This document shows, in pieces, positions 3,587 to 49,287 of a DNA stretch of 64,000 bases. The notes under the pieces were generated by a model. The model was not told where the DNA came from and made no database searches. It saw only the letters and a list, made by a program, of their open reading frames with translations. The DNA lies in the sequence record JX128258; one strand, 5' to 3'. Source of the stretch: Escherichia phage ECML-117. A program made the translations under genes and the position numbers. Every line of letters begins with the position of its first letter. Positions within the stretch are counted from its first letter, which is position 1.

Positions 3587-4099
3587 ATGAAAATCGAACA
3601 ACTCGAAGCAGTATTGGAAATGGCCGTAAAGGCAGGCGCAATCAAAAGCTATCGTCGCGAGAAGTCAGATAGCGATAAGGTGTTTTGTCGCAACTTCTAT
3701 ATCGTTGGCAACCTTAACGACCACTACACCATCGAGTGGTATACTAACGTGATGACCCTTAAGTCGCGCACCATGGAGCTTTGGTGTGATGACATCTGTC
3801 TTTCGAATACTCACCCAAGCTATGATGTCGCCCTGGCATTCTATCACGGAAGCCGTCAACCTGTCGCCCACATCGGTGAGAAGCATGAGCATCTTAAGGC
3901 ACGACCAGAGGAATCAATGGAAGGTTGGATTGAATGGGCTGGCGGAAAGAATCCGGTGCCTGGTAAGATGGTCGAATACAGGCTGCGCAATGAAGGGGAT
4001 AAAGTGCTGTCAAGACTCTCTGACCATCTGCACTGGGCCCATATAGGAGGACTAAAAGGTAGTGACATCATTGCTTATCGGGTCGTTAAGGAGGGATGA
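3587..4099 (+). CDS. hypothetical protein (170 aa)
   Basis: Track ORF; AGGAGAAG upstream; N-terminus resembles product of 2643..2948 (AVKAGAIKSY vs AVNCGAIKEF). Confidence 0.55.
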   Translation: MKIEQLEAVLEMAVKAGAIKSYRREKSDSDKVFCRNFYIVGNLNDHYTIEWYTNVMTLKSRTMELWCDDICLSNTHPSYDVALAFYHGSRQPVAHIGEKHEHLKARPEESMEGWIEWAGGKNPVPGKMVEYRLRNEGDKVLSRLSDHLHWAHIGGLKGSDIIAYRVVKEG

Positions 4100-4548
4100 T
4101 GGGTAAACGCCTTATCGCCGCTGGTTGGGCCATACCGAAGTGGGGTCATCGTGCGCATTACTTTGACGAAGGAGAAGTGCAAAGCCTTTGTGGTCGCGCA
4201 ACGTATTTCGGTGATGAGCGCGTCAGCGGCGATTATATCGACTCGCTTTTAGGCAAAGGTGATTGCAAGAAGTGTCAGAATATATTAAGGGATATTCTTA
4301 CGCAAAAAGGATTGCTTGAGCTTGATGAATCGGAAGAAGTAATTGAACTTAAGCTGGAAGCCAATCACCTTATTAATATGTTCAAGAACTATTACGCAAC
4401 TAATATGCGCTCAAAAATGAGCGAGGAAGTAATAGAAAAGGTGTTCACCTACAATCCGCTAAGGATGAATAAAACCAAATTGAAGAAGTTTAATATAATG
4501 TTAAGGAAAGAATTTAAAAGGCTAGGGGTGAAGAATTTTATATTTTAA
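4096..4548 (+). CDS. hypothetical protein (150 aa)
   Basis: Track ORF; start overlaps upstream stop. Confidence 0.5.
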   Translation: MMGKRLIAAGWAIPKWGHRAHYFDEGEVQSLCGRATYFGDERVSGDYIDSLLGKGDCKKCQNILRDILTQKGLLELDESEEVIELKLEANHLINMFKNYYATNMRSKMSEEVIEKVFTYNPLRMNKTKLKKFNIMLRKEFKRLGVKNFIF

Positions 4549-4566
4549 TAGTGATTAATGTTAAGA

Positions 4567-4590
4567 GGGCCGATTGGCCCTTTTTGTTTG
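4567..4590 (+). terminator. rho-independent terminator (GGGCC-gatt-GGCCC + T-tract)
   Basis: Hairpin and TTTTTGTTT read directly after the stop at 4548. Confidence 0.6.
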
Positions 4591-4874
4591 CCCGTGGGGT
4601 GTGAGTCTTTATTATCGGATAAAGCGATTGATTTGTGTAAATCTATTAGAGGATGGTGGGGAATGAGGATTGTGACGTGATTTGTGTGTCTTGAATATGT
4701 GTGCGGATTTGGAAGAATATTGTACTGTGGTGCTGTGGGATTGGAGAGGGAATCACTAGGTTTTGGGGCGTGTACCGTGGTGTGTGGGCCTGTAGGCTGC
4801 GCCGTCTCTGGGATTGCCGCCTGAAATTTAAAAGGAGATATAGTTAGCTGGCTAACCTTACGTATAGAATTTAA

Positions 4875-5162
4875 GCGTATAATGACGTAAGATTTGGACC
4901 TATCCGTAGTTCACTCCACACACTTCTATGGTGCGCCGCGACTGGGTTCAGTGGTACATCTTACGGATGATACGGATGATACGCGTCGCCGCTATACTTT
5001 ATACAACTTTGAAAAAAACAATTAACTCCATTTTGAATTAATTTAAATTAATTTTTTTCTACATCCTCATACTTATACTAAACTTATGTTTATACGTATT
5101 ATCCGTAAGATATAAGTAAAAACAAAGACTTGCGGCAATACGGATGATACGTCATGATACGC
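4875..5162. promoter_or_regulatory. iteron/AT-rich control element, copy A
   Basis: GCGTATAATGACGTA at 4875-4889; tandem 9-mers in CTTACGGATGATACGGATGATACGCGTCGCCGC at 4960-4992; AT-rich tract 4993-5100; inverted ATCCGTAAG at 5101; ACGGATGATACG at 5140-5151. Homologous to copy B at 20906-21180. Confidence 0.5.
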
Positions 5163-5389
5163 TTCAACCAGCCAGCAGCGGCTAAGTCATTGATTTGCAT
5201 AACAAGCGGCGAAAGGGATGGATTTCTTTTATACGTATCAAACAGTACACCACGCACCACGGTCCGCTATTCATTCAGCACTATGATTTGTGTACTTTTA
5301 CAGCCAATTTGAACATCAATCTGCACTTGAATATAATGTTCATTCATTGTATAATTCACACTATTAATTTGCACTATGGGATTTGCACT

Positions 5390-5863
5390 ATGAGTCAAGA
5401 TTATGTAGCAATGCCTGAAGACTTTGAAGACCCGCGATTTGCAGAGCATAATCAGGCATTATTCGATGAGTTCATTGACCTTGTTATTCAGGGCCATGAC
5501 ATGCGCGCAGCTTTTGCACTAGTATTTGGCATGGAGGTTGCGACCGATAACTACACTGGCCAGCGAATCCTCTGCACGCAACGCAATCCGTACTACAAGA
5601 TGCGCTACAAAAAGCGTATGGAAGAGATGCCATTGAAGGAATTGTGGAGTGTAAAGAGTTCCATCCACAATTTAGTGAAGCTTGTGCGTGATCCAGAAGT
5701 CGCAGCATCAGCCAAGCTTAATGCCATTCGTGAACTGAATATCATCTACGGCATCACGATGATTGATGAGAATGGCAATAGTAAAATGGGCCGTTCCATG
5801 GACGATTTCTACAAGGATTTTGGAGAGGCAGCCAAAGAGGGTGAGCAATTCTCCCGCCACTAG
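5390..5863 (+). CDS. hypothetical protein (157 aa)
   Basis: In frame with track ORF 5195..5863; ATG at 5390 after two TATAAT-like boxes; the start codon overlaps a copy of the ATTTGCACTAT motif. Confidence 0.5.
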   Translation: MSQDYVAMPEDFEDPRFAEHNQALFDEFIDLVIQGHDMRAAFALVFGMEVATDNYTGQRILCTQRNPYYKMRYKKRMEEMPLKELWSVKSSIHNLVKLVRDPEVAASAKLNAIRELNIIYGITMIDENGNSKMGRSMDDFYKDFGEAAKEGEQFSRH

Positions 5864-5882
5864 CCAATTTGCACTATAAAAC

Positions 5883-5916
5883 GGCCCTAGAACACATTTT
5901 CTCCACTTCTAGGGCC
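5883..5916. other. perfect 10-bp stem-loop (GGCCCTAGAA-N14-TTCTAGGGCC)
   Basis: Read directly; lies 20 nt after the stop at 5863; no clear T-tract on the plus strand. Confidence 0.5.
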
Positions 5917-6261
5917 ATCGGTAATACGACGGGGAAGGTTACAACCATAAACGCTTTAGAAAGTGTATTATTATAAGTCATCTTTTAGTCACTTTACGTA
6001 ACAATTTACGACCTTCCGCCGTCCAGTCGAACGACTCCACCAGCAGATTTGCACTATAACCTAAGACGATGCGCCCTTTCTCGTTATCGACCCGCCAACA
6101 AGTCTCGAATAGCATTCGATTTGCACTATTAACTATCGCCGCAACGCGCGTTGGGTAAGCGCAATTTGCACTATGGTCGTAAAGGGATAAGGTGCGACCA
6201 CTTCCGATGGACAACGTAGCGATGAGAATAAGCGTATTCATAAGCCACCAATTTGCACTAT

Positions 6262-6284
6262 GAAAAGCGACCCCGAAGGGCCGC
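6262..6284 (-). terminator. putative rho-independent terminator for minus-strand gene 6292..6918
   Basis: Minus-strand GCGGCCC-ttcg-GGGTCGC hairpin (one mismatch) followed by TTTT. Confidence 0.4.
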
Positions 6285-6291
6285 CATTCGA

Positions 6292-6918
6292 TTAGATAAT
6301 CTGGAATGTGTAGGACTTGTTGCCGAACTCAAAGGTCAAGCGTCCAGCTTCTTTAAGCTTCATGCGGAAGCGAATGTGCTTGCTATCCGGTAATCCCAGC
6401 GCGGCGAACGCTACGCGGACCGATTTGAACTCGCCTACACCTTCGACCATGACGCCGTTACGGGTGAGACGCTTTTGCGCCACTTCCTTGTTATCCCAAC
6501 TTTTTGCAATACCTTCGCTATTCGAACGGCGATGGGAAGGACTGGCAATTTTATCCGCGCCAACCGGAGCATCATTCAGGCCGCTTTTAACGAAGGCTTC
6601 ATATTCTTCGTCGGTCATCGCGTCGAGTTCTTCCTGGGTCGGCTCCGCTTTTTTAACGACCGCACGCGCTTTGTGCGTTTTTACATCGCTGGACACTTCC
6701 TCGCGCGGCTTCGCGTCTGGGATGGGCGATTCGTTGGACGGCTCATCGAGCGCGTTTAAGGACTCGATTAACGCGATGACGCGAGTCTCAGCGGTGCGAC
6801 GGTCCGCAAACTTCTTAATCGGTTTTGAGCCGGAGTTAGCGTTATAGAATGCAACGAGGTCGGCGGTCTTAGTTGCGATAACGTCGCCGCTAGTAGAGAA
6901 ACGATTCAAGCTAACCAT
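6292..6918 (-). CDS. hypothetical protein (208 aa) with acidic central linker
   Basis: Track ORF; AGGAG upstream on minus strand; antisense plus-strand ORFs are Ser-rich and low-complexity; CpG-rich composition. Confidence 0.6.
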   Translation of the reverse strand: MVSLNRFSTSGDVIATKTADLVAFYNANSGSKPIKKFADRRTAETRVIALIESLNALDEPSNESPIPDAKPREEVSSDVKTHKARAVVKKAEPTQEELDAMTDEEYEAFVKSGLNDAPVGADKIASPSHRRSNSEGIAKSWDNKEVAQKRLTRNGVMVEGVGEFKSVRVAFAALGLPDSKHIRFRMKLKEAGRLTFEFGNKSYTFQII

Positions 6919-6987
6919 AATAAACTCCTAGTTTGGGAGCGGCGTTAACGACCTATTCGCTAACTCATCCCGTCCCGATATGAGTAC

Positions 6988-7015
6988 ATTATAATATAGT
7001 GTAGAAAAAAGTAAA
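6988..7015 (-). promoter_or_regulatory. sigma70-like promoter (TTTACT-N16-TATAAT) for 6292..6918
   Basis: Minus-strand read GTGCTTTACT...TATAATGTACTCATATCGGGACGGGATGAGTTAGCGAATAGGTCG is homologous to the plus-strand module upstream of 7554. Confidence 0.45.
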
Positions 7016-7059
7016 GCACTTTTTCGATAAAAATGCGATAAATTATTTTATCTTTTTTC

Positions 7060-7087
7060 TTTACTTCTTCGTACACTCGCGTATACT
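7060..7087 (+). promoter_or_regulatory. sigma70-like promoter (TTTACT-N16-TATACT) for 7144..7446
   Basis: CTTTACTTCTTCGTACACT shared with promoter at 7458; followed by TGTTTATATCGAGACGGG leader. Confidence 0.45.
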
Positions 7088-7143
7088 TGTTTATATCGAG
7101 ACGGGCGATGGCCCTTCCTTCTACTAGCATCGGGAGCTTTATT

Positions 7144-7446
7144 ATGACTACTTTAATCTCTTCCATCCTTACTTACGACGAAGACCGTTTAACCGTTCGC
7201 TCTCTTATCGCCGCCGTTAACGCGGAACTAGAATCTAGCGCCATTAAGGTCCGCGCGGTCGCCTTCATCGGCCTTTCCTTCGACGATATGAAGTACGCCG
7301 AACGTAGCGCCATCCGCTTCGCGAAGACCGACGACGAAGCCGTTACCCTTATCGAGACGGTTACGCCGCGCGGCGAAGCGTTAATTATCGTCGAGTATAT
7401 CGACGTAGAAGGCGATAAATCTTATAAACATTTTATCGCAGAATGA
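7144..7446 (+). CDS. small acidic protein (100 aa)
   Basis: In frame with track ORF 7087..7446; ATG at 7144 after GGGAG; codon usage rich in CpG, almost no CTG/CAG. Confidence 0.55.
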   Translation: MTTLISSILTYDEDRLTVRSLIAAVNAELESSAIKVRAVAFIGLSFDDMKYAERSAIRFAKTDDEAVTLIETVTPRGEALIIVEYIDVEGDKSYKHFIAE

Positions 7447-7457
7447 CGAAAAAGTGC

Positions 7458-7486
7458 TTTACTTCTTCGTACACTAAGACTATAAT
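7458..7486 (+). promoter_or_regulatory. sigma70-like promoter (TTTACT-N17-TATAAT) for 7554..7844
   Basis: Hexamers read directly; duplicated module of 7060-7087. Confidence 0.5.
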
Positions 7487-7508
7487 GTTTTATATCGAGA
7501 GGGGATGA

Positions 7509-7529
7509 GGTAGCGAATAGGTCGCTACC
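7509..7529 (+). other. leader stem-loop (GGTAGCGA-atagg-TCGCTACC) in 5' UTR
   Basis: 8-bp perfect stem between promoter and RBS; a related imperfect copy lies in the minus-strand leader of 6292..6918. Confidence 0.45.
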
Positions 7530-7553
7530 CTCCCGACTAACTAGGAGAATATT

Positions 7554-7844
7554 ATGATTACTTTAGCCGCTATCCGTTCCGCTCGCGTCGAAACTTCCGA
7601 AAACTCTAACGTATTTGGCGAAACCTTAGAGAGCGTTTATCTCTCTAACGTAGACGCAACTATCGAGTCTATTTATGAGCCGATCAACTTTCTCGACCTT
7701 TACAAGTATCGCGACGAGGACATCGTATCCTACCGCGTAACGATTAACGGCTTCGTTTATACGATCACCGAAATCGGCGGCGAATATATAGCTGTACCGC
7801 AACTCGGCGGCGAAGTAACTTACTTTAAAATCGTAAGCCTTTAA
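7554..7844 (+). CDS. small acidic protein (96 aa)
   Basis: Track ORF; AGGAGAA upstream; same unusual codon usage as 7144..7446; similar size and N-terminus (MITLAAI vs MTTLISSI). Confidence 0.6.
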   Translation: MITLAAIRSARVETSENSNVFGETLESVYLSNVDATIESIYEPINFLDLYKYRDEDIVSYRVTINGFVYTITEIGGEYIAVPQLGGEVTYFKIVSL

Positions 7845-7855
7845 GGAGAAGAAAG

Positions 7856-8065
7856 ATGACTAATATGAATAACTCTCTTAACGCGCGCGCCCATCGCACC
7901 GCCGTAATCGATATGTTTCGCGAGCTTAAGGAATTATGCGATAATATGAACGCGATGTTATCCATCGGCGGCTGGGGATACGAAGAAGAAGTTAAATACG
8001 CGGTTATGCGTCGCCGTCGCGATAACGTCCTTGGACAAATTAAACGCGCCGGATTATTCCTTTAA
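7856..8065 (+). CDS. hypothetical protein (69 aa)
   Basis: Track ORF; AAGGAGAAGAAAG upstream; same codon usage; followed by terminator. Confidence 0.55.
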   Translation: MTNMNNSLNARAHRTAVIDMFRELKELCDNMNAMLSIGGWGYEEEVKYAVMRRRRDNVLGQIKRAGLFL

Positions 8066-8091
8066 TTATAATCACCCACCGTTACTAATAG

Positions 8092-8116
8092 GCCGCGCTT
8101 AGTCGCGGCTTTTCTT
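8092..8116 (+). terminator. rho-independent terminator (GCCGCG-cttagt-CGCGGC + TTTTCTT)
   Basis: Read directly after the stop at 8065. Confidence 0.6.
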
Positions 8117-8586
8117 CGTCCCTATCTCAATGCGCTTCTCCGCGAAAATTCCTTTATCCTTCCCTTCGTCGTCGCATAATCTTCGTCGAGATGCTCCTTA
8201 GTTCGCATAACGGGTATTACGTTAAATGGAGAACATCGCGTAAGTCCTTGTTTTATATAGACACCTATATCGGACCGTTAAGGCGGGTCGCGTAAGTCGT
8301 TGTTTTATAAAGGCGCAAAACTTTCCCTTCGTTCCGAACTAAAACGAGAAATATGCGGACCCTTCGCCCGAAAATAGTACGCATGCGAAATTACCGACAT
8401 CTAGAATAATCCCCGCCGATATTATCCTACACGCAATCATTAGCCTTCGAATCATTATGCTTCATATTATTATGCATCGAATCATTCGCTTTCGAATTGT
8501 AACGCTGGAAACTGTAACGGCGATTGATTATTGCGTTCGTGTGGTTTTTATGGCATGGGTCTTTTGGTGCGTTTTGGTACTTGATG

Positions 8587-8709
8587 AAATTTGCAGTACA
8601 CTAATCAAAATACGACACATTTGGTCCACTAACTTTTCAAAGAAAAAGTCCTAGACAGTACCGTACTATTTTGTGCCCACAGTAAATTTGCAGTACACTC
8701 CTGCGCGGC
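8587..8709 (+). repeat. two copies of 16-bp motif AAATTTGCAGTACACT
   Basis: Exact copies at 8587-8602 and 8694-8709; shares the ATTTGCA core with the 11-bp array at 5367-6261. Confidence 0.7.
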
Positions 8710-8767
8710 AGGCAAAGAAAGGGCCGCCACAGCGACCCACGATTCACGGTTAAATCAGCAACACCCA

Positions 8768-9178
8768 CTATTCGCTCTTATGGGCATCACCAAAGCCATC
8801 CGCAATCTGGCTGATCAATGATTCAATGGACACAGTTTTACCAATTGATCGAGCGGTAATAGCAAGCATATTATCAATCAAACCATGATTGGATGCATAT
8901 GGTCCAGGTTTTGAATCATCTTCAGGACAGCCAAAAAGCTGGTCGCGCAAACTTTCGAGAGAACGCTCAATATTTTCCAGCTTCTCTTCTAAATCAGATT
9001 GGCGACGTAAAACCCATGTTAAGTCTCGGTTGCCGACTTCCAACCCATCAGAATCGCAAGCTGGAACGTCAATTTTGATGCTGCCACCAAAGGCCATTCC
9101 GCTGCCTTTAGTATATGTGTTGTGAATAGAATCATTCTTATTTGACATATCATTACCTTTCATGAGGGTGATTAACAA
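8768..9178 (-). CDS. hypothetical protein (136 aa)
   Basis: Track ORF on minus strand; start may be an internal Met. Confidence 0.5.
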   Translation of the reverse strand: MLITLMKGNDMSNKNDSIHNTYTKGSGMAFGGSIKIDVPACDSDGLEVGNRDLTWVLRRQSDLEEKLENIERSLESLRDQLFGCPEDDSKPGPYASNHGLIDNMLAITARSIGKTVSIESLISQIADGFGDAHKSE

Positions 9179-20734: not shown

Positions 20735-20872
20735 ATGCAAAAGATTATCCAGTCACGTTACGTTAAAGTGCGAAATATTAATTGCAACTCTTTGCTTTCT
20801 TGGAAATGGGCTGTTTACGACTCGATGCTGATTGGCGTTTTAGTTGCTGGAGTGCTTTTTAATATTCACTGA
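20735..20872 (+). CDS. small membrane protein (45 aa), not in ORF track
   Basis: ATG at 20735 after AAGAGGAAG; translation MQKIIQSRYVKVRNINCNSLLSWKWAVYDSMLIGVLVAGVLFNIH with one hydrophobic segment. Confidence 0.35.
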   Translation: MQKIIQSRYVKVRNINCNSLLSWKWAVYDSMLIGVLVAGVLFNIH

Positions 20873-20905: not shown

Positions 20906-21180
20906 GCGTATAATGACGTATCATCCGTATCAAGTAAGTAGTTGTTTTCAAAAGAATCTTACGGATGATACGGATGATACGCGTTGCCGCGATACTTTAT
21001 AGGAATTCAAATAAATTAATTTAAAATTATATATCTAATTTAATTTTATTTTTTTATAAACTCTTATATATGAAAAGTATCCGTATCATCCGTATCATCC
21101 GTAGCACACCAGTGATAGCGCGGCTTATACACCGATACGGATAAAAAATACGCCTCATCTTATCCGTATCATCCGTATCA
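20906..21180. promoter_or_regulatory. iteron/AT-rich control element, copy B
   Basis: GCGTATAATGACGTA at 20906-20920; CTTACGGATGATACGGATGATACGCGTTGCCGC at 20958-20990; AT-rich tract 21001-21075; inverted triple ATCCGTATCATCCGTATCATCCGTA at 21079-21103; inverted double at 21162-21180. Confidence 0.55.
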
Positions 21181-21289: not shown

Positions 21290-22708
21290 ATGCGAATGCA
21301 AACGGCACGCGAAATTGACAAAAATGGATTCTTGACGATTGTGGGTTGTCCCATTTCGTCATTTGGCATTTTTGATTATTCTGCAGGTCAGGTTGGACTT
21401 GATGGTGATCCGAATCGCATCGTAAAAGTTTATCGCCCAGAGTCAGCGGTGAAAGACCCCGAAGCGATAGATTCATTCAAAAATATCCCTTTCATCGACA
21501 ATCACGAAATGCTTTCTGGATTCGAAGGTGATGAGGATAACACAGCACCCGAAGAGTATGGCGTTGATGGCGTTCTAACTGGCAATGTTTATTATGACAA
21601 GCCATGGATGCGCGGCGACCTTAAAGTTTTTAGCCGTCGTCTGAAGAAGGCCATCGACTCTGGAAAGGTTGACTTGTCTTTGGGCTATGACTGTGAATTC
21701 ATCATACAGTCTGGAGAGTTTGACGGGCAGCCGTATGAAGTGGTACAGACAACTCTTCGCGGCAACCACATTGCTCTCGTGGACGTTGGTCGAGTACCAG
21801 GTGCACGGGTGCTGGATGGTCGTTGCTTTGACCATCTTTGTTTGACGACTGTAACACCATCCAACGAGGATTTAGACATGCCAAAACCGTTAAAAGGTAA
21901 AGCGCGTGATAATGCTGTTGAACAGCTGAAATCACTGATCCCTGCGCTCGAACAATTTCTGAATGAAGAGAGCACCGAAGCTGCTCATCAGGACGAAGTT
22001 GAAGTGAAAGCAGAAGAGAAGGATTCAACCGAAGAACGTGAAGAAGTGATGGTTGATCCAGAAGTCAAAGCAGAAGCTGAAGAGACTCCAGAAGGTGAAG
22101 AGAAGTTTGAATTTGAAACTGAATCTCACGCTGGCGGCGAGCTTCCGCAACTGATCAGCCAAATCGAAGCACTTATTGCAAAACTGAAAGGTGGCGCGGT
22201 AGGTGATGAAGAAGAAGTTGAAGCCGAAGTCAAAGACGAAGAAGTTGAAGTCAAGGCTGAAGATGTATCACCTTGCGACAAAGCTGAAGATGTGGTTAGC
22301 GGCCTGCAAAACAGCAACGTAAAGGGGGCTTCGGTCGAAAAAGATGACAAACCGACAAAAGCGGCGAAAGCGTCGCCAGGTCCAGCAAAAGGGGAACACT
22401 CAATGGCATCTGATTCAGCAGTTGCTGCTTTCTACGCTGATTCTGCTCGTAAGAATAGCCTCTACCAGCGCCTGTCTAAAGTTGTTGGTGCCTTTGATCA
22501 TGCAACTATGGACTCCAAGTCCGTAGCGAAATATGGCGCTAAAAAGTTAGGCTTGAAGTGCGTTGATGGTGCTGAGTTTGACGTGGTGGATAATTATCTG
22601 CGCGGCGTTGAACACGGTCAAAAACAGCGTGTAGTCGCAAAACAAAAGGCCGCTGCGGATTCTGCAGCAACTGACGAAGCGTTTGAAGCTTGGTTGAAAG
22701 GGGAATAA
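21290..22708 (+). CDS. prohead scaffold/protease-like protein with acidic low-complexity centre
   Basis: 472 aa; Glu/Lys/Ala-rich acidic repeats (EVEVKAEE...); lies immediately upstream of the capsid gene. Confidence 0.55.
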   Translation: MRMQTAREIDKNGFLTIVGCPISSFGIFDYSAGQVGLDGDPNRIVKVYRPESAVKDPEAIDSFKNIPFIDNHEMLSGFEGDEDNTAPEEYGVDGVLTGNVYYDKPWMRGDLKVFSRRLKKAIDSGKVDLSLGYDCEFIIQSGEFDGQPYEVVQTTLRGNHIALVDVGRVPGARVLDGRCFDHLCLTTVTPSNEDLDMPKPLKGKARDNAVEQLKSLIPALEQFLNEESTEAAHQDEVEVKAEEKDSTEEREEVMVDPEVKAEAEETPEGEEKFEFETESHAGGELPQLISQIEALIAKLKGGAVGDEEEVEAEVKDEEVEVKAEDVSPCDKAEDVVSGLQNSNVKGASVEKDDKPTKAAKASPGPAKGEHSMASDSAVAAFYADSARKNSLYQRLSKVVGAFDHATMDSKSVAKYGAKKLGLKCVDGAEFDVVDNYLRGVEHGQKQRVVAKQKAAADSAATDEAFEAWLKGE

Positions 22709-47763: not shown

Positions 47764-49287
47764 TTAATTCATCTTTTTGCCGTCGAGGATGTGATCAGCA
47801 AGCATAGACTTCATACTTAGTGAACGCTGAATTTCTTCGTCGATGGTATCAACACCAATAAAATCAACATACAATACGCTTGATTTTGTTCCGATGCGGT
47901 GATTTCGGTCTTCGGATTGCTTGCGCAACTCGTTGTCATAGTTGCAAGAATAGTAGATTGCCAAGTCAGCGGCGGTAAGCGTGATGCCGATGCCTGCCGC
48001 TGCAGCGTGGCAAACCAATACCTGTGTTCCGCCATTCGCCACTGTGTTCTTCTGGAAGTCATCAATTAAGAACTCGCGTTGCTCTTTTGACGTTTCACCG
48101 TTGTATACACCAGTGACCACGCCTTCAGACTCAAGCCAATCCTTAATCTGGTTCATCTCTTCCTTAAAGATGGCCCAAACAATGAATTTGCGCTCTGGGT
48201 CATCTTCCAACACCCCTTCCACATAGTCCTTAAATGCCGTGAATCGTGGGTTGTCTTCCATGTAGACCATCTCATCATACACCTTAACAAAGCCGGATGT
48301 CACCTGCTTCATCTTAGTGCGCGACGCGATCATCTCAAACTTGACGTTTTCTTCTTCGCCTTTGTACTCCATCAGATAGTTGTACTCATTCTTGAGTTCA
48401 TCGTAAACATCGCGTTGTTTAGGCGACAACTCGAAGTCAATAAACTTGTACACCTTCTCTGGAAGGTCCGGCAAGTATTCCGCTTTTGTCGCACGAAAAT
48501 AGTGCGGTTCCATCAGCCGGATAAGCTTGTCAAGGTTTTTGTACATCGGTCGGCCAAACTGGTCTTTGCGCGGCACTTGCGGAATCCCATGGCCATTGCC
48601 GCCGATTTTCTTGAGGATGGCTTGCATCTCTGGGTCGTGCGCTTCAAGTAGCACCGTGAATTCAGAGTTGAATGCACGGAATGATTTGGTGCCGAGCAAG
48701 CCTGCTTCAAGGAAGTGGTATTGCATGTAAATATCCGCAGGCGAGCGCGGCAACGGCGTGCCAGAAAGGATTCGACGGGCCTTTGCCAGCCGTCCCAATT
48801 CCACAACCTTGATGGAGCGTTTTGCTGTGTTATTCTTGATTCGCGTTGATTCGTCGATAATCATCAGGCAGCGGTATTTCTTCAAGACCGACTCGATGTG
48901 TTGATAACCGACTGGTGTGTTGACTGTGTCGATGTTGAATGAGAAAATGCGCGCAGGCACTTCGCCTTCAGGGTAGTGATCAGCAAACATCTTCTCCCAA
49001 AGCGCCTTGCCCTTTTTAGTCTTCATCTTGTCATTGCCGCGCCAGTAGTGCCCAATCCACTTGATGGAAAGGTGTTCTGGTGCTTCACGACGAATCCAGT
49101 TTGAGTGGACACCGTTTGGAGCGATGACGACCATGGCATCGAACGCGCCAGCGACGAAGTGCTTTTCAAACTCTGCCAAAGCGGTCCAAGTTTTACCAAG
49201 ACCCTGTTCCATGAAATAGGCAAAGTATTTTCTGCGGCCTGCTTTATCAAGCGCCAGAAGCTGGTGGCGCATCCCTTGTGTTTTCAT
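47764..49287 (-). CDS. SNF2-family helicase/ATPase
   Basis: 507 aa; Walker A GLGKT, DEST box (MIIDESTRIKN), C-terminal helicase domain. Confidence 0.7.
   Translation of the reverse strand: MKTQGMRHQLLALDKAGRRKYFAYFMEQGLGKTWTALAEFEKHFVAGAFDAMVVIAPNGVHSNWIRREAPEHLSIKWIGHYWRGNDKMKTKKGKALWEKMFADHYPEGEVPARIFSFNIDTVNTPVGYQHIESVLKKYRCLMIIDESTRIKNNTAKRSIKVVELGRLAKARRILSGTPLPRSPADIYMQYHFLEAGLLGTKSFRAFNSEFTVLLEAHDPEMQAILKKIGGNGHGIPQVPRKDQFGRPMYKNLDKLIRLMEPHYFRATKAEYLPDLPEKVYKFIDFELSPKQRDVYDELKNEYNYLMEYKGEEENVKFEMIASRTKMKQVTSGFVKVYDEMVYMEDNPRFTAFKDYVEGVLEDDPERKFIVWAIFKEEMNQIKDWLESEGVVTGVYNGETSKEQREFLIDDFQKNTVANGGTQVLVCHAAAAGIGITLTAADLAIYYSCNYDNELRKQSEDRNHRIGTKSSVLYVDFIGVDTIDEEIQRSLSMKSMLADHILDGKKMN

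Follow-up and report, generated by a model that had tools for sequence, protein, structure and literature searches.

The 64,000-nucleotide stretch of Escherichia phage ECML-117 analysed here (sequence record JX128258; hereafter, the window) contains, at positions 4591-4810 of its plus strand, a GT-rich, C-poor tract located 220-440 bp outside the left boundary of the direct terminal repeat (DTR), where the unique region ends on the right. We are confident that this tract is a non-coding, C-depleted spacer at the outer edge of the 841-bp control region of a WFH-like Wifcevirus phage, that it is neither a gene, nor a folded RNA, nor a canonical G-quadruplex, and that what is maintained in it is the composition of the strand (few C, more G than C and a T-rich plus strand) and not its sequence. 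The new result is a composition that is conserved across unrelated versions of the sequence. These data suggest that strand composition, and not sequence, is what some function or process reads; most economically, the tract would be a member of one of two known kinds of element, a rut-like insulator or a junction spacer. The phage itself is a Wifcevirus myophage with 97.5% identity to Escherichia phage vB_EcoM_WFH (WFH), and all the database matches of the region are Wifcevirus myophages that infect E. coli or Shigella.

The composition of the tract (81 G, 73 T, 41 A and 25 C; 70% G+T, 36.8% G and 11% C) makes it the most GT-rich and the most GC-skewed 220-nt stretch within the 64 kb. The highest G+T fraction found for a stretch of this length is 0.718, starting at 4574, while the next independent peak reaches 0.623; the segment is 5.6 standard deviations above the window mean, and the GC-skew maximum, 0.62, also falls in it. 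An earlier note on this DNA, made from its letters, had described the tract as almost entirely G and T with very few C. The first part of this description captures the compositional extreme of the window but is overstated, as 19% of the tract is A. The scarcity of C, by contrast, is real: there are only 14 C in the 185 nt of 4596-4780, and 10 of the 25 C sit in the final 36 nt. The skew is also unlike that of other intergenic regions, since no non-coding segment of at least 120 nt elsewhere in the window has a GC skew above 0.28.

Short words were also counted in the tract, including the FtsK-orienting motif KOPS (GGGNAGGG), Chi, GGA and primase trinucleotides, and only two departures stood out. 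One is an enrichment of TGTG (11 copies against 3.1 expected, P~0.001), with TGTGTG or GTGTGT at 4683, 4698 and 4780 and an accompanying excess of TG steps (36 against 26.7 expected). The other, a depletion of GTT (1 against 9), was dropped as a signal because the T-rich alleles described below do not share it. The GGGG tracts to which attention had been drawn, together with the TGTGTG runs, do exist (at 4596, 4658 and 4765), but these three copies compare with 3.9 expected from composition, and the nine GGG with 10.8, so that G-runs are not enriched. A tandem-repeat search found none within the tract.

In BLAST searches for distant matches among phages and E. coli, the tract in the form present in the window was found only in nine clade-1 Wifcevirus phages (11 records), with 90-95% identity, and no counterpart was found in E. 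coli genomes. At least four types of allele occupy the same site in the genus (window/WFH, WFC, Bas98/99 and RCIP0319), and pairwise identity between types is 0.52-0.56, the same as the shuffled baseline of 0.54 +/- 0.014. Pattern scans of IMG/VR and metagenomes for further alleles returned the known types only. These unalignable alleles nevertheless have one composition: in 12 of 12 genomes, G+T is 0.65-0.82 and C is 0.00-0.13 from roughly -490 to -250 with respect to the left DTR boundary (in coordinates computed relative to 5020, 10 nt left of the true boundary). The most constant property across alleles is the depletion of C with G in excess over C. The other alleles are T-rich (40-44% T), and the Bas98/99 spacer, which is 400 bp long and partly A/T-rich, is still C-poor.

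No part of the junction varies more within clade 1 than the tract, whose nucleotide diversity (pi) is 0.086; the values are 0.049 for all sites of the upstream gene and 0.0085 for the region 4851-5029, which bears iterons. The synonymous diversity of that gene is, however, 0.161, and the window and Bas101 differ at 26% of four-fold degenerate sites genome-wide. The tract is, therefore, not free of constraint, its rate of evolution being at most about half that of synonymous sites. A regional mutation bias can be ruled out as the source of the composition: the four-fold sites of the 11 plus-strand genes directly upstream, which share strand, transcription and replication direction with the tract, have a GC skew of only +0.03 and a T-A skew of +0.08. 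Because these neighbouring sites are unskewed, the cause of the low C content is confined to the spacer. It is from the combination of alleles that are unalignable but all C-poor with the lack of skew at neighbouring neutral sites that we conclude that composition, and not sequence, is maintained. Literature searches found no paper that mentions the tract or analyses the Wifcevirus junction, and nothing on GT-rich elements at phage terminal repeats.

Regarding coding capacity, the earlier note stated that there is no open reading frame (ORF). Three mechanical ORFs of 40-48 aa do overlap the tract, and they are annotated in some GenBank records, but two of them are broken in relatives: ORF 4558-4680 is frameshifted in 2 of 10 clade-1 genomes, and ORF 4684-4824 has stop codons in 3 of 10. 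The remaining one, 4701-4847, is open in 10 of 10 genomes and starts with GTG. Its ratio of non-synonymous to synonymous polymorphism (pN/pS) is 0.40, versus 0.14 for a genuine neighbouring gene, and it has neither a Shine-Dalgarno sequence nor a match to a PHROG family. The ORFs annotated in the WFC-type allele are likewise broken in 4-5 of 6 genomes. A protein-coding gene was consequently rejected and the tract was judged to be non-coding, which is the substance of the statement, if not its letter.

The structured RNA and the G-quadruplex DNA that had also been suggested found no support in the corresponding analyses. A scan of 4300-5400 against Rfam (E-value <=10) returned chance-level matches only, the best of which reach 15-20 bits, against gathering thresholds of 45-120, and all of which lie outside the tract. 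The plus-strand fold is weaker than those of 199 of 200 dinucleotide shuffles (z=+2.17), and the minus-strand fold (-24.4 kcal/mol over 249 nt) is indistinguishable from them (z=+0.17). Folding of both strands and of the four alleles gave no consistent signal of stability, the segments used for the other alleles (-16 to -27 kcal/mol per 230 nt on the minus strand) including the terminator hairpin. Homologues are either at least 90% identical or unalignable, which bears on any test for compensatory changes. With respect to G-quadruplexes, no motif of G-runs of three or more with loops of 1-7 or 1-12 nt was found in 4501-4900, where the sole four-run arrangement would need loops of 8, 14 and 17 nt. 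The G4Hunter maximum is 1.24 (the threshold is ~1.5) and the segment mean 0.55, and the tract holds six runs of GGG or longer and two weak two-tetrad motifs. Additionally, a sponge RNA of the CsrA type was tried and rejected, as the excess of GGA is small (9 against 5.5 expected, P=0.07), there is no hairpin array and the fold is weaker than that of shuffles.

The tract belongs to the control region 4549-5389, which is non-coding, includes the left DTR boundary and has, along the plus strand, the following order: terminator, GT-rich spacer, ACCGTGGTG box, iterons, AT-rich DNA with the genome end, and early promoters. The features of this region and of the DTR to which we refer below are:

4563-4590, plus strand: intrinsic terminator, with the hairpin AAGAGGGCC-GAUU-GGCCCUUUU followed by the U-run UUUUUGUUU; also annotated in the WFH record, at the same place.

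4591-4773, plus strand: core of the GT-rich, C-poor spacer, delimited by its composition rank and non-coding character; the skew runs on to ~4810.

4774-4787, plus strand: box ACCGTGGTGTGTGG, bordering the tract on its 3' side.

4851-5029, strand not applicable: conserved DNA with iterons just outside the DTR (pi 0.0085).

5030-5389, strand not applicable: non-coding start of the DTR, with an AT-rich stretch, iterons, the inverted box and promoters.

5030-8564, strand not applicable: the DTR, ~3.5 kb, present as a single copy in the window; the record ends of WFH, WFC, Ro157lw and Mansfield were mapped here.

8519-8578, plus strand: second GT-rich stretch, 82% G+T, highly conserved, straddling the right DTR boundary 8564|8565.

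As the earlier note said, the tract lies directly after a terminator. Its hairpin (4563-4584) has a stability of -14.1 kcal/mol (z=-3.6), its U-run ends at 4590, and it closes a long plus-strand operon of small early/middle genes, the last of which is 4096-4548. At the other edge of the tract, columns 4768-4787, including the box, are invariant across 10 genomes. Degenerate copies of the box are found upstream, at 4592 and 4725, and the other alleles likewise have a degenerate upstream copy. Two additional observations concern this box. It forms, with CCACGCACCACGGT (5250-5263), a 14-nt inverted repeat with 13 of 14 positions complementary, whose arms lie 462 bp apart and bracket the module of iterons and terminus; and, in the other alleles, a related CCGTGGTG core is found at the 3' edge of the GT tract.

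Among the functions that could be read from composition, we tentatively propose, with more doubt than conviction, that the tract acts as a polar, sequence-independent transcription insulator between the DTR and the early operon. The known class of element that fits best is that of the Rho utilization (rut) sites. These, such as those of lambda tR1 and trp t', have no consensus and consist of long, unstructured, C-rich and G-poor RNA; being defined by composition, they fit alleles that cannot be aligned but share one composition. On the minus strand, C exceeds G by at least 25 points continuously over 4586-4817, and this is the sole extended stretch of such C excess on either strand of the window. 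The minus-strand RNA of 4591-4810 contains 37% C and 11% G in its 220 nt, where rut sites take at least 70-80 nt of C-rich, G-poor RNA, and it has the little secondary structure that is typical of them, as judged from the -24.4 kcal/mol given above. Furthermore, the minus-strand version of the terminator hairpin (-11.5 kcal/mol) is located 3' of the C-rich stretch, and a C-rich, G-poor, unstructured minus-strand RNA of this kind is common to all the alleles.

In the proposed model, a leftward, minus-strand RNA coming from the DTR would carry more than 200 nt of this C-rich, G-poor and almost structure-free sequence. Rho would load on it as at a rut site, and the terminator hairpin, which comes next on the minus strand, could serve as a pause site. 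As a result, antisense transcription into the early operon, which comprises ~40 small genes, would be halted. The plus-strand RNA, being C-poor, would be a poor substrate for Rho. If the model is correct, the tract would be a clean natural example of a regulatory element that has no consensus and depends on composition only.

Several observations weigh against such an insulator. No convincing leftward sigma-70 promoter was found in 4830-5389, where the best candidates match 8-9 of 12 positions; similarly weak leftward matches (8-9/12) include 5428-5400 and 5487-5458. Terminators of their own, at ~5882-5917 and 6267-6284, serve the nearest minus-strand genes, and a literature search found no expression data for Wifcevirus. 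It is because of these three points that we keep the proposal tentative. In addition, the element would be antisense to the adjoining operon, it is longer than a rut site needs to be, and the genome uses no comparable signal at any other place. Finally, the second GT-rich stretch follows the orientation of the genome and not that of local transcription, which hints at a property of the DNA itself that is tied to the DTR.

A serious, though doubtful, alternative is that the tract has no function of its own and consists of decaying, duplicated junction DNA, whose composition is the one at which a local and strand-asymmetric process of substitution settles, for instance the deamination of cytosines on the plus strand. 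Possibly, a read-through RNA that is untranslated and poor in C would give rise to R-loops that Rho could not clear, in a self-reinforcing ratchet. Such an origin agrees with the tract being the most variable part of the junction and with the pattern of its substitutions: per site, C>T changes (7/25) are more frequent than G>A changes (6/81; Fisher P=0.012), and a crude rate matrix built from these counts gives an equilibrium of A.25, C.13, G.20 and T.42, close to the WFC-type composition and that of the other alleles, although the window type is richer in G. When composition is taken into account, the spectrum of pair types does not depart significantly from the one at four-fold sites; G<->T substitutions had seemed to be in excess, but this signal was dropped when it vanished in the same comparison (chi-square ~7, 5 df). 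Moreover, degenerate copies of the downstream box, the GC-box or the iterons are present in the tract of all four alleles (Fisher-combined P ~0.004), which suggests old duplications of the junction in decay. Nevertheless, the unskewed four-fold sites next to the tract would confine the process to ~200-400 bp; evolution at about half the synonymous rate implies some constraint; the compact genome of these phages retains 200-400 bp at this place in every lineage examined; and the strong terminator directly upstream limits the read-through on which the R-loops would depend. Were the tract a by-product after all, it would mark a very local, strand-specific process beside the genome end.

The position of the tract next to the DTR raises the question of a role at the level of DNA. 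The DTR boundaries were placed by mapping the ends of records that contain the repeat onto the window. The left one, 5029|5030, reads AATTAACTCC|ATTTTGAATT and is the same in WFH, WFC, Ro157lw and Mansfield, and the right one, 8564|8565, reads GGGTCTTT|TGGTGCG in WFH and Ro157lw. In the WFC record, the right end is 82 nt further right (after ...TTTTCAAAGAAA, compared with ...GGGTCTTT in WFH and Ro157lw), with a nearly identical local sequence, so that either the right end is imprecise or one of the deposited records was mis-trimmed. Wifcevirus genomes have been described as ~68 kb plus a DTR of ~3.7 kb (PMC6563267), and that of phage Mansfield was measured as 3,673 bp by PhageTerm (PMC6753283).

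The second GT-rich stretch that the earlier note had mentioned, at 8520-8580, turned out to be the top 60-nt G+T window of the 64 kb. The region around it, 8400-8770, is packed with short direct repeats and is nearly invariant between clades, with a mean column identity of 96% among the window, WFH, WFC and Ro157lw, the GT-rich 60-mer included; this 60-mer is about 97% conserved across clades. As the main tract is variable and unalignable, the two stretches differ in kind, the one at the right boundary behaving as a sequence-specific site and the main tract not. A 10-mer, GCGATTGATT, that is common to 4624 and 8520 was discarded, as its occurrence is at chance expectation in 64 kb. The second stretch is part of the 700-bp non-coding inner (right) end of the DTR, 8066-8767, which is pyrimidine-rich at 8100-8200 and contains short direct repeats, TCGCGTAAGTCnTTGTTTTATA twice and AATCATTnGCnTTCG three times. 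With an identity of about 96-97% between the two clades, this region is a candidate for the terminase end site or for a region of the injection-stop type, as in T5. Other GT-rich windows, with values of 0.68-0.74, correspond to small ORFs, such as 20737-20872 here and 110826-111490 in T5. Those of T5 are annotated as single-pass membrane proteins, and the product of 20737-20872 resembles a membrane peptide by eye. The GT-richness of these coding windows reflects Val, Leu, Phe, Gly and Trp codons and is distinct from the spacer phenomenon.

Given these data, the tract might be a cis element of the DTR junction, in which an asymmetric duplex rich in TG steps would aid the assembly of terminase, the termination of packaging or the duplication of the DTR, with a GT-rich stretch ahead of each boundary, in both cases on one strand. 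We consider this rather unlikely, despite several coincidences. The two top GT 60-mers of the window, one at 4651, 320-379 bp short of the left boundary, and the other at 8519, on the right boundary, both lie on the plus strand, and the chance of their co-location is ~6e-4 under random placement. Additionally, the tract stays at the same position with respect to the boundary in all alleles, TG steps are in excess, and the short repeats and iterons arrayed around the two boundaries suggest sites of protein assembly. However, if such extremes are tolerated in non-coding DNA alone, the chance of co-location is estimated at only ~0.06, which is not significant; the distances to the boundaries are unequal (220 bp and 0 bp); and the repeat junctions of T5 and T7 have no non-coding GT tract. 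Known pac and cos sites are sequence-specific, unlike the variable tract, and the conserved sequence and binding motifs that a packaging signal should display are found in the iterons (pi 0.0085) and in 8519-8578, and not in the tract (pi 0.086), the part of the junction where conservation is lowest and where the clades are unalignable. The packaging or recombination signal suggested by the earlier note draws support only from location, 220-440 bp outside the left boundary, with a second stretch at the right one. The related Pbunavirus phages are reported to be circularly permuted (PMC12345254), and, therefore, a comparison of junctions within the family is not possible.

In an unlikely variant, the tract and the stretch at the right boundary would together be a strand-specific DNA signal defined by composition, which would mark the approach to each DTR boundary for the machinery that packages DNA or duplicates the repeat in long-DTR phages. 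If this machinery recognised a property of the strand, or a physical one, and not a sequence, the replacement of the signal by unrelated GT-rich DNA would be explained.

The 12-mer ACGGATGATACG (variant ACGTCATGATACG) has 16 matches at <=2 mismatches in the window, against 3.7 expected, and these form two clusters only, 4875-5161 and 20917-21176. In the first, which encloses the left genome end, ACGGATGATACG iterons are present at 4963 and 4972, with a minus-strand variant at ~4875-4888, an inverted iteron at 5095-5106 and further direct iterons at 5140-5161; the genome end itself lies in about 65 bp of AT-rich DNA. The second occupies the non-coding gap ahead of a head-protease-like gene (21290-22708), is conserved in the genus and has ~75% identity to the first. 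Both share a layout of two overlapping direct copies, GCCGCnATACTTTATA, ~100 bp with more than 80% A+T, and inverted copies. The clusters have the look of a module for protein binding, of the origin or pac type, that was duplicated, perhaps comparable to oriL/oriR of SPP1.

Two further readings are made less likely by the T-rich alleles, the lack of an R-loop motif and of Chi, and the location of the tract outside the repeat. In the first of them, which we consider improbable, the tract would be the R-loop or primer zone of a replication origin, in which plus-strand transcripts, with the G-rich strand as the non-template one, would form a persistent hybrid and prime DNA synthesis at the AT-rich element flanked by iterons. 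R-loop priming of this type is known from ColE1, T4 ori(uvsY) and mitochondrial CSBII. The succession of a G-rich plus strand, iterons, ~100 bp of AT-rich DNA and inverted iterons would suit an origin, as would a weak promoter-like site on the plus strand (4588-4615) and the C>T asymmetry on the strand that would be displaced. Yet no R-loop initiation zone (three runs of at least three G or two of at least four G within 10 nt, plus at least 40% G) was found in the tract, which has 37% G and 55% purines; the T content of the other alleles would result in unstable rU:dA hybrids; there is a strong terminator just upstream; and the second iteron module (20.9 kb) lacks such a tract, except for the GT-rich small ORF.

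In the other, which is quite improbable, the tract would be an enhancer of recombinational pairing, GT-rich strands favouring strand invasion in a Chi-like manner during the formation of concatemers or the exchange of early-gene modules. Tracy and Kowalczykowski, in 1996/97, reportedly found that RecA and Rad51 prefer GT-rich DNA. After 5' resection, the 3' end of the right terminus would be the GT-rich sequence 8520-8564, and there are mosaic breakpoints at the tract, as homology to Bas99 stops at 4610 and homology to clade 2 resumes at 4958. Nonetheless, Chi (GCTGGTGG) is absent from the tract, where there is one copy with a single mismatch (GATGGTGG), and the only plus-strand Chi in the window is at 49260. 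Moreover, no DNA end coincides with the main tract, which is placed outside the repeat, where the recombination that forms concatemers would not occur, and no recombinase gene is annotated in relatives. That the tract is a structured RNA or a G-quadruplex, as the earlier note suggested, or else a small RNA or the gene of a small protein, is very improbable: the G-runs and weak two-tetrad motifs, the slight excess of GGA and the open frame 4701-4847 are outweighed by the chance-level Rfam matches, the fold z-scores, the lack of a canonical quadruplex motif, the broken ORFs in this and the other alleles, the lack of PHROG matches and the absence of sequence homology between alleles.

Other observations concern the DTR and the way in which the junction has been annotated. 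Tandem sigma-70-like promoters (5309-5355) precede the first gene of the DTR, 5390-5863. The motif AATTTGCA(C/G)TA occurs 11 times, always on the plus strand, between 5366 and 8700, and is confined to the DTR and the 130 bp past its right boundary; judging from the sequence, it appears to be an oriented repeat family limited to the DTR and its right flank. Two exact copies of AAATTTGCAGTACACT are found beyond the right boundary, at 8587 and 8684. In the records of relatives (Bas98-101, kaset and RCIP0319), three to five coding sequences for a "hypothetical protein" are annotated within the region corresponding to 4549-5389, some of which cross the iterons and reach the genome end. Most of them are interrupted in close relatives, and they are probably annotation artefacts.

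Outside T7, the way in which phages with long, exact DTRs recognise, cut and duplicate their boundaries is poorly understood. Wifcevirus phages are candidates for the biocontrol and detection of O157; a very rapid replication has been reported for them (PMC11990801), and it is already possible to rebuild them in vitro (PMC11074155). An assembly in vitro has been described for vB_Eco4M-7. The junction is now mapped precisely, with its terminator, C-poor spacer, box, iterons, AT-rich end and early promoters, and this delimits a region that genome engineers may keep or test.

The tract can be compared with several known systems. As in strands subject to single-strand exposure, such as the G+T-rich heavy strand of vertebrate mitochondrial DNA or G-rich R-loop zones, there is a keto-rich strand that is poor in C and A and in which C>T changes exceed G>A changes. 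By contrast, the asymmetry of the tract is confined to ~200-400 bp, its neighbours are unskewed, and there is no R-loop motif. The concatemer junction of T7 and T3 also has non-coding DNA directly outside the DTR, short motifs around the cut sites and the end of an operon and promoters adjoining them; in T7 and T3, the junction has arrays of short repeats flanking the DTR, pac sequences and a pause site for transcription. The T7 repeat is, however, 160 bp long, with specific conserved sequences and no GT-rich, C-poor tract, whereas here the repeat is 3.5 kb long and the tract is variable. T5 is closer with respect to the repeat itself, which is long (~10 kb in T5, 3.5 kb here), carries small early genes and strong host-type promoters, and has repeat-laden non-coding DNA at its inner end (8066-8767 here). 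Unlike the window, T5 is coding up to its right repeat, and its GT-rich windows are small membrane-protein genes; the stepwise entry of T5 is, additionally, not known for Wifcevirus. Finally, compared with the rut sites of lambda tR1 and E. coli trp t', the tract is antisense to the adjacent operon, more than 200 nt long and unique in its genome. Nevertheless, like them, it would give rise, on the minus strand, to a C-rich, G-poor and unstructured RNA followed by a hairpin, and it is defined by its composition.

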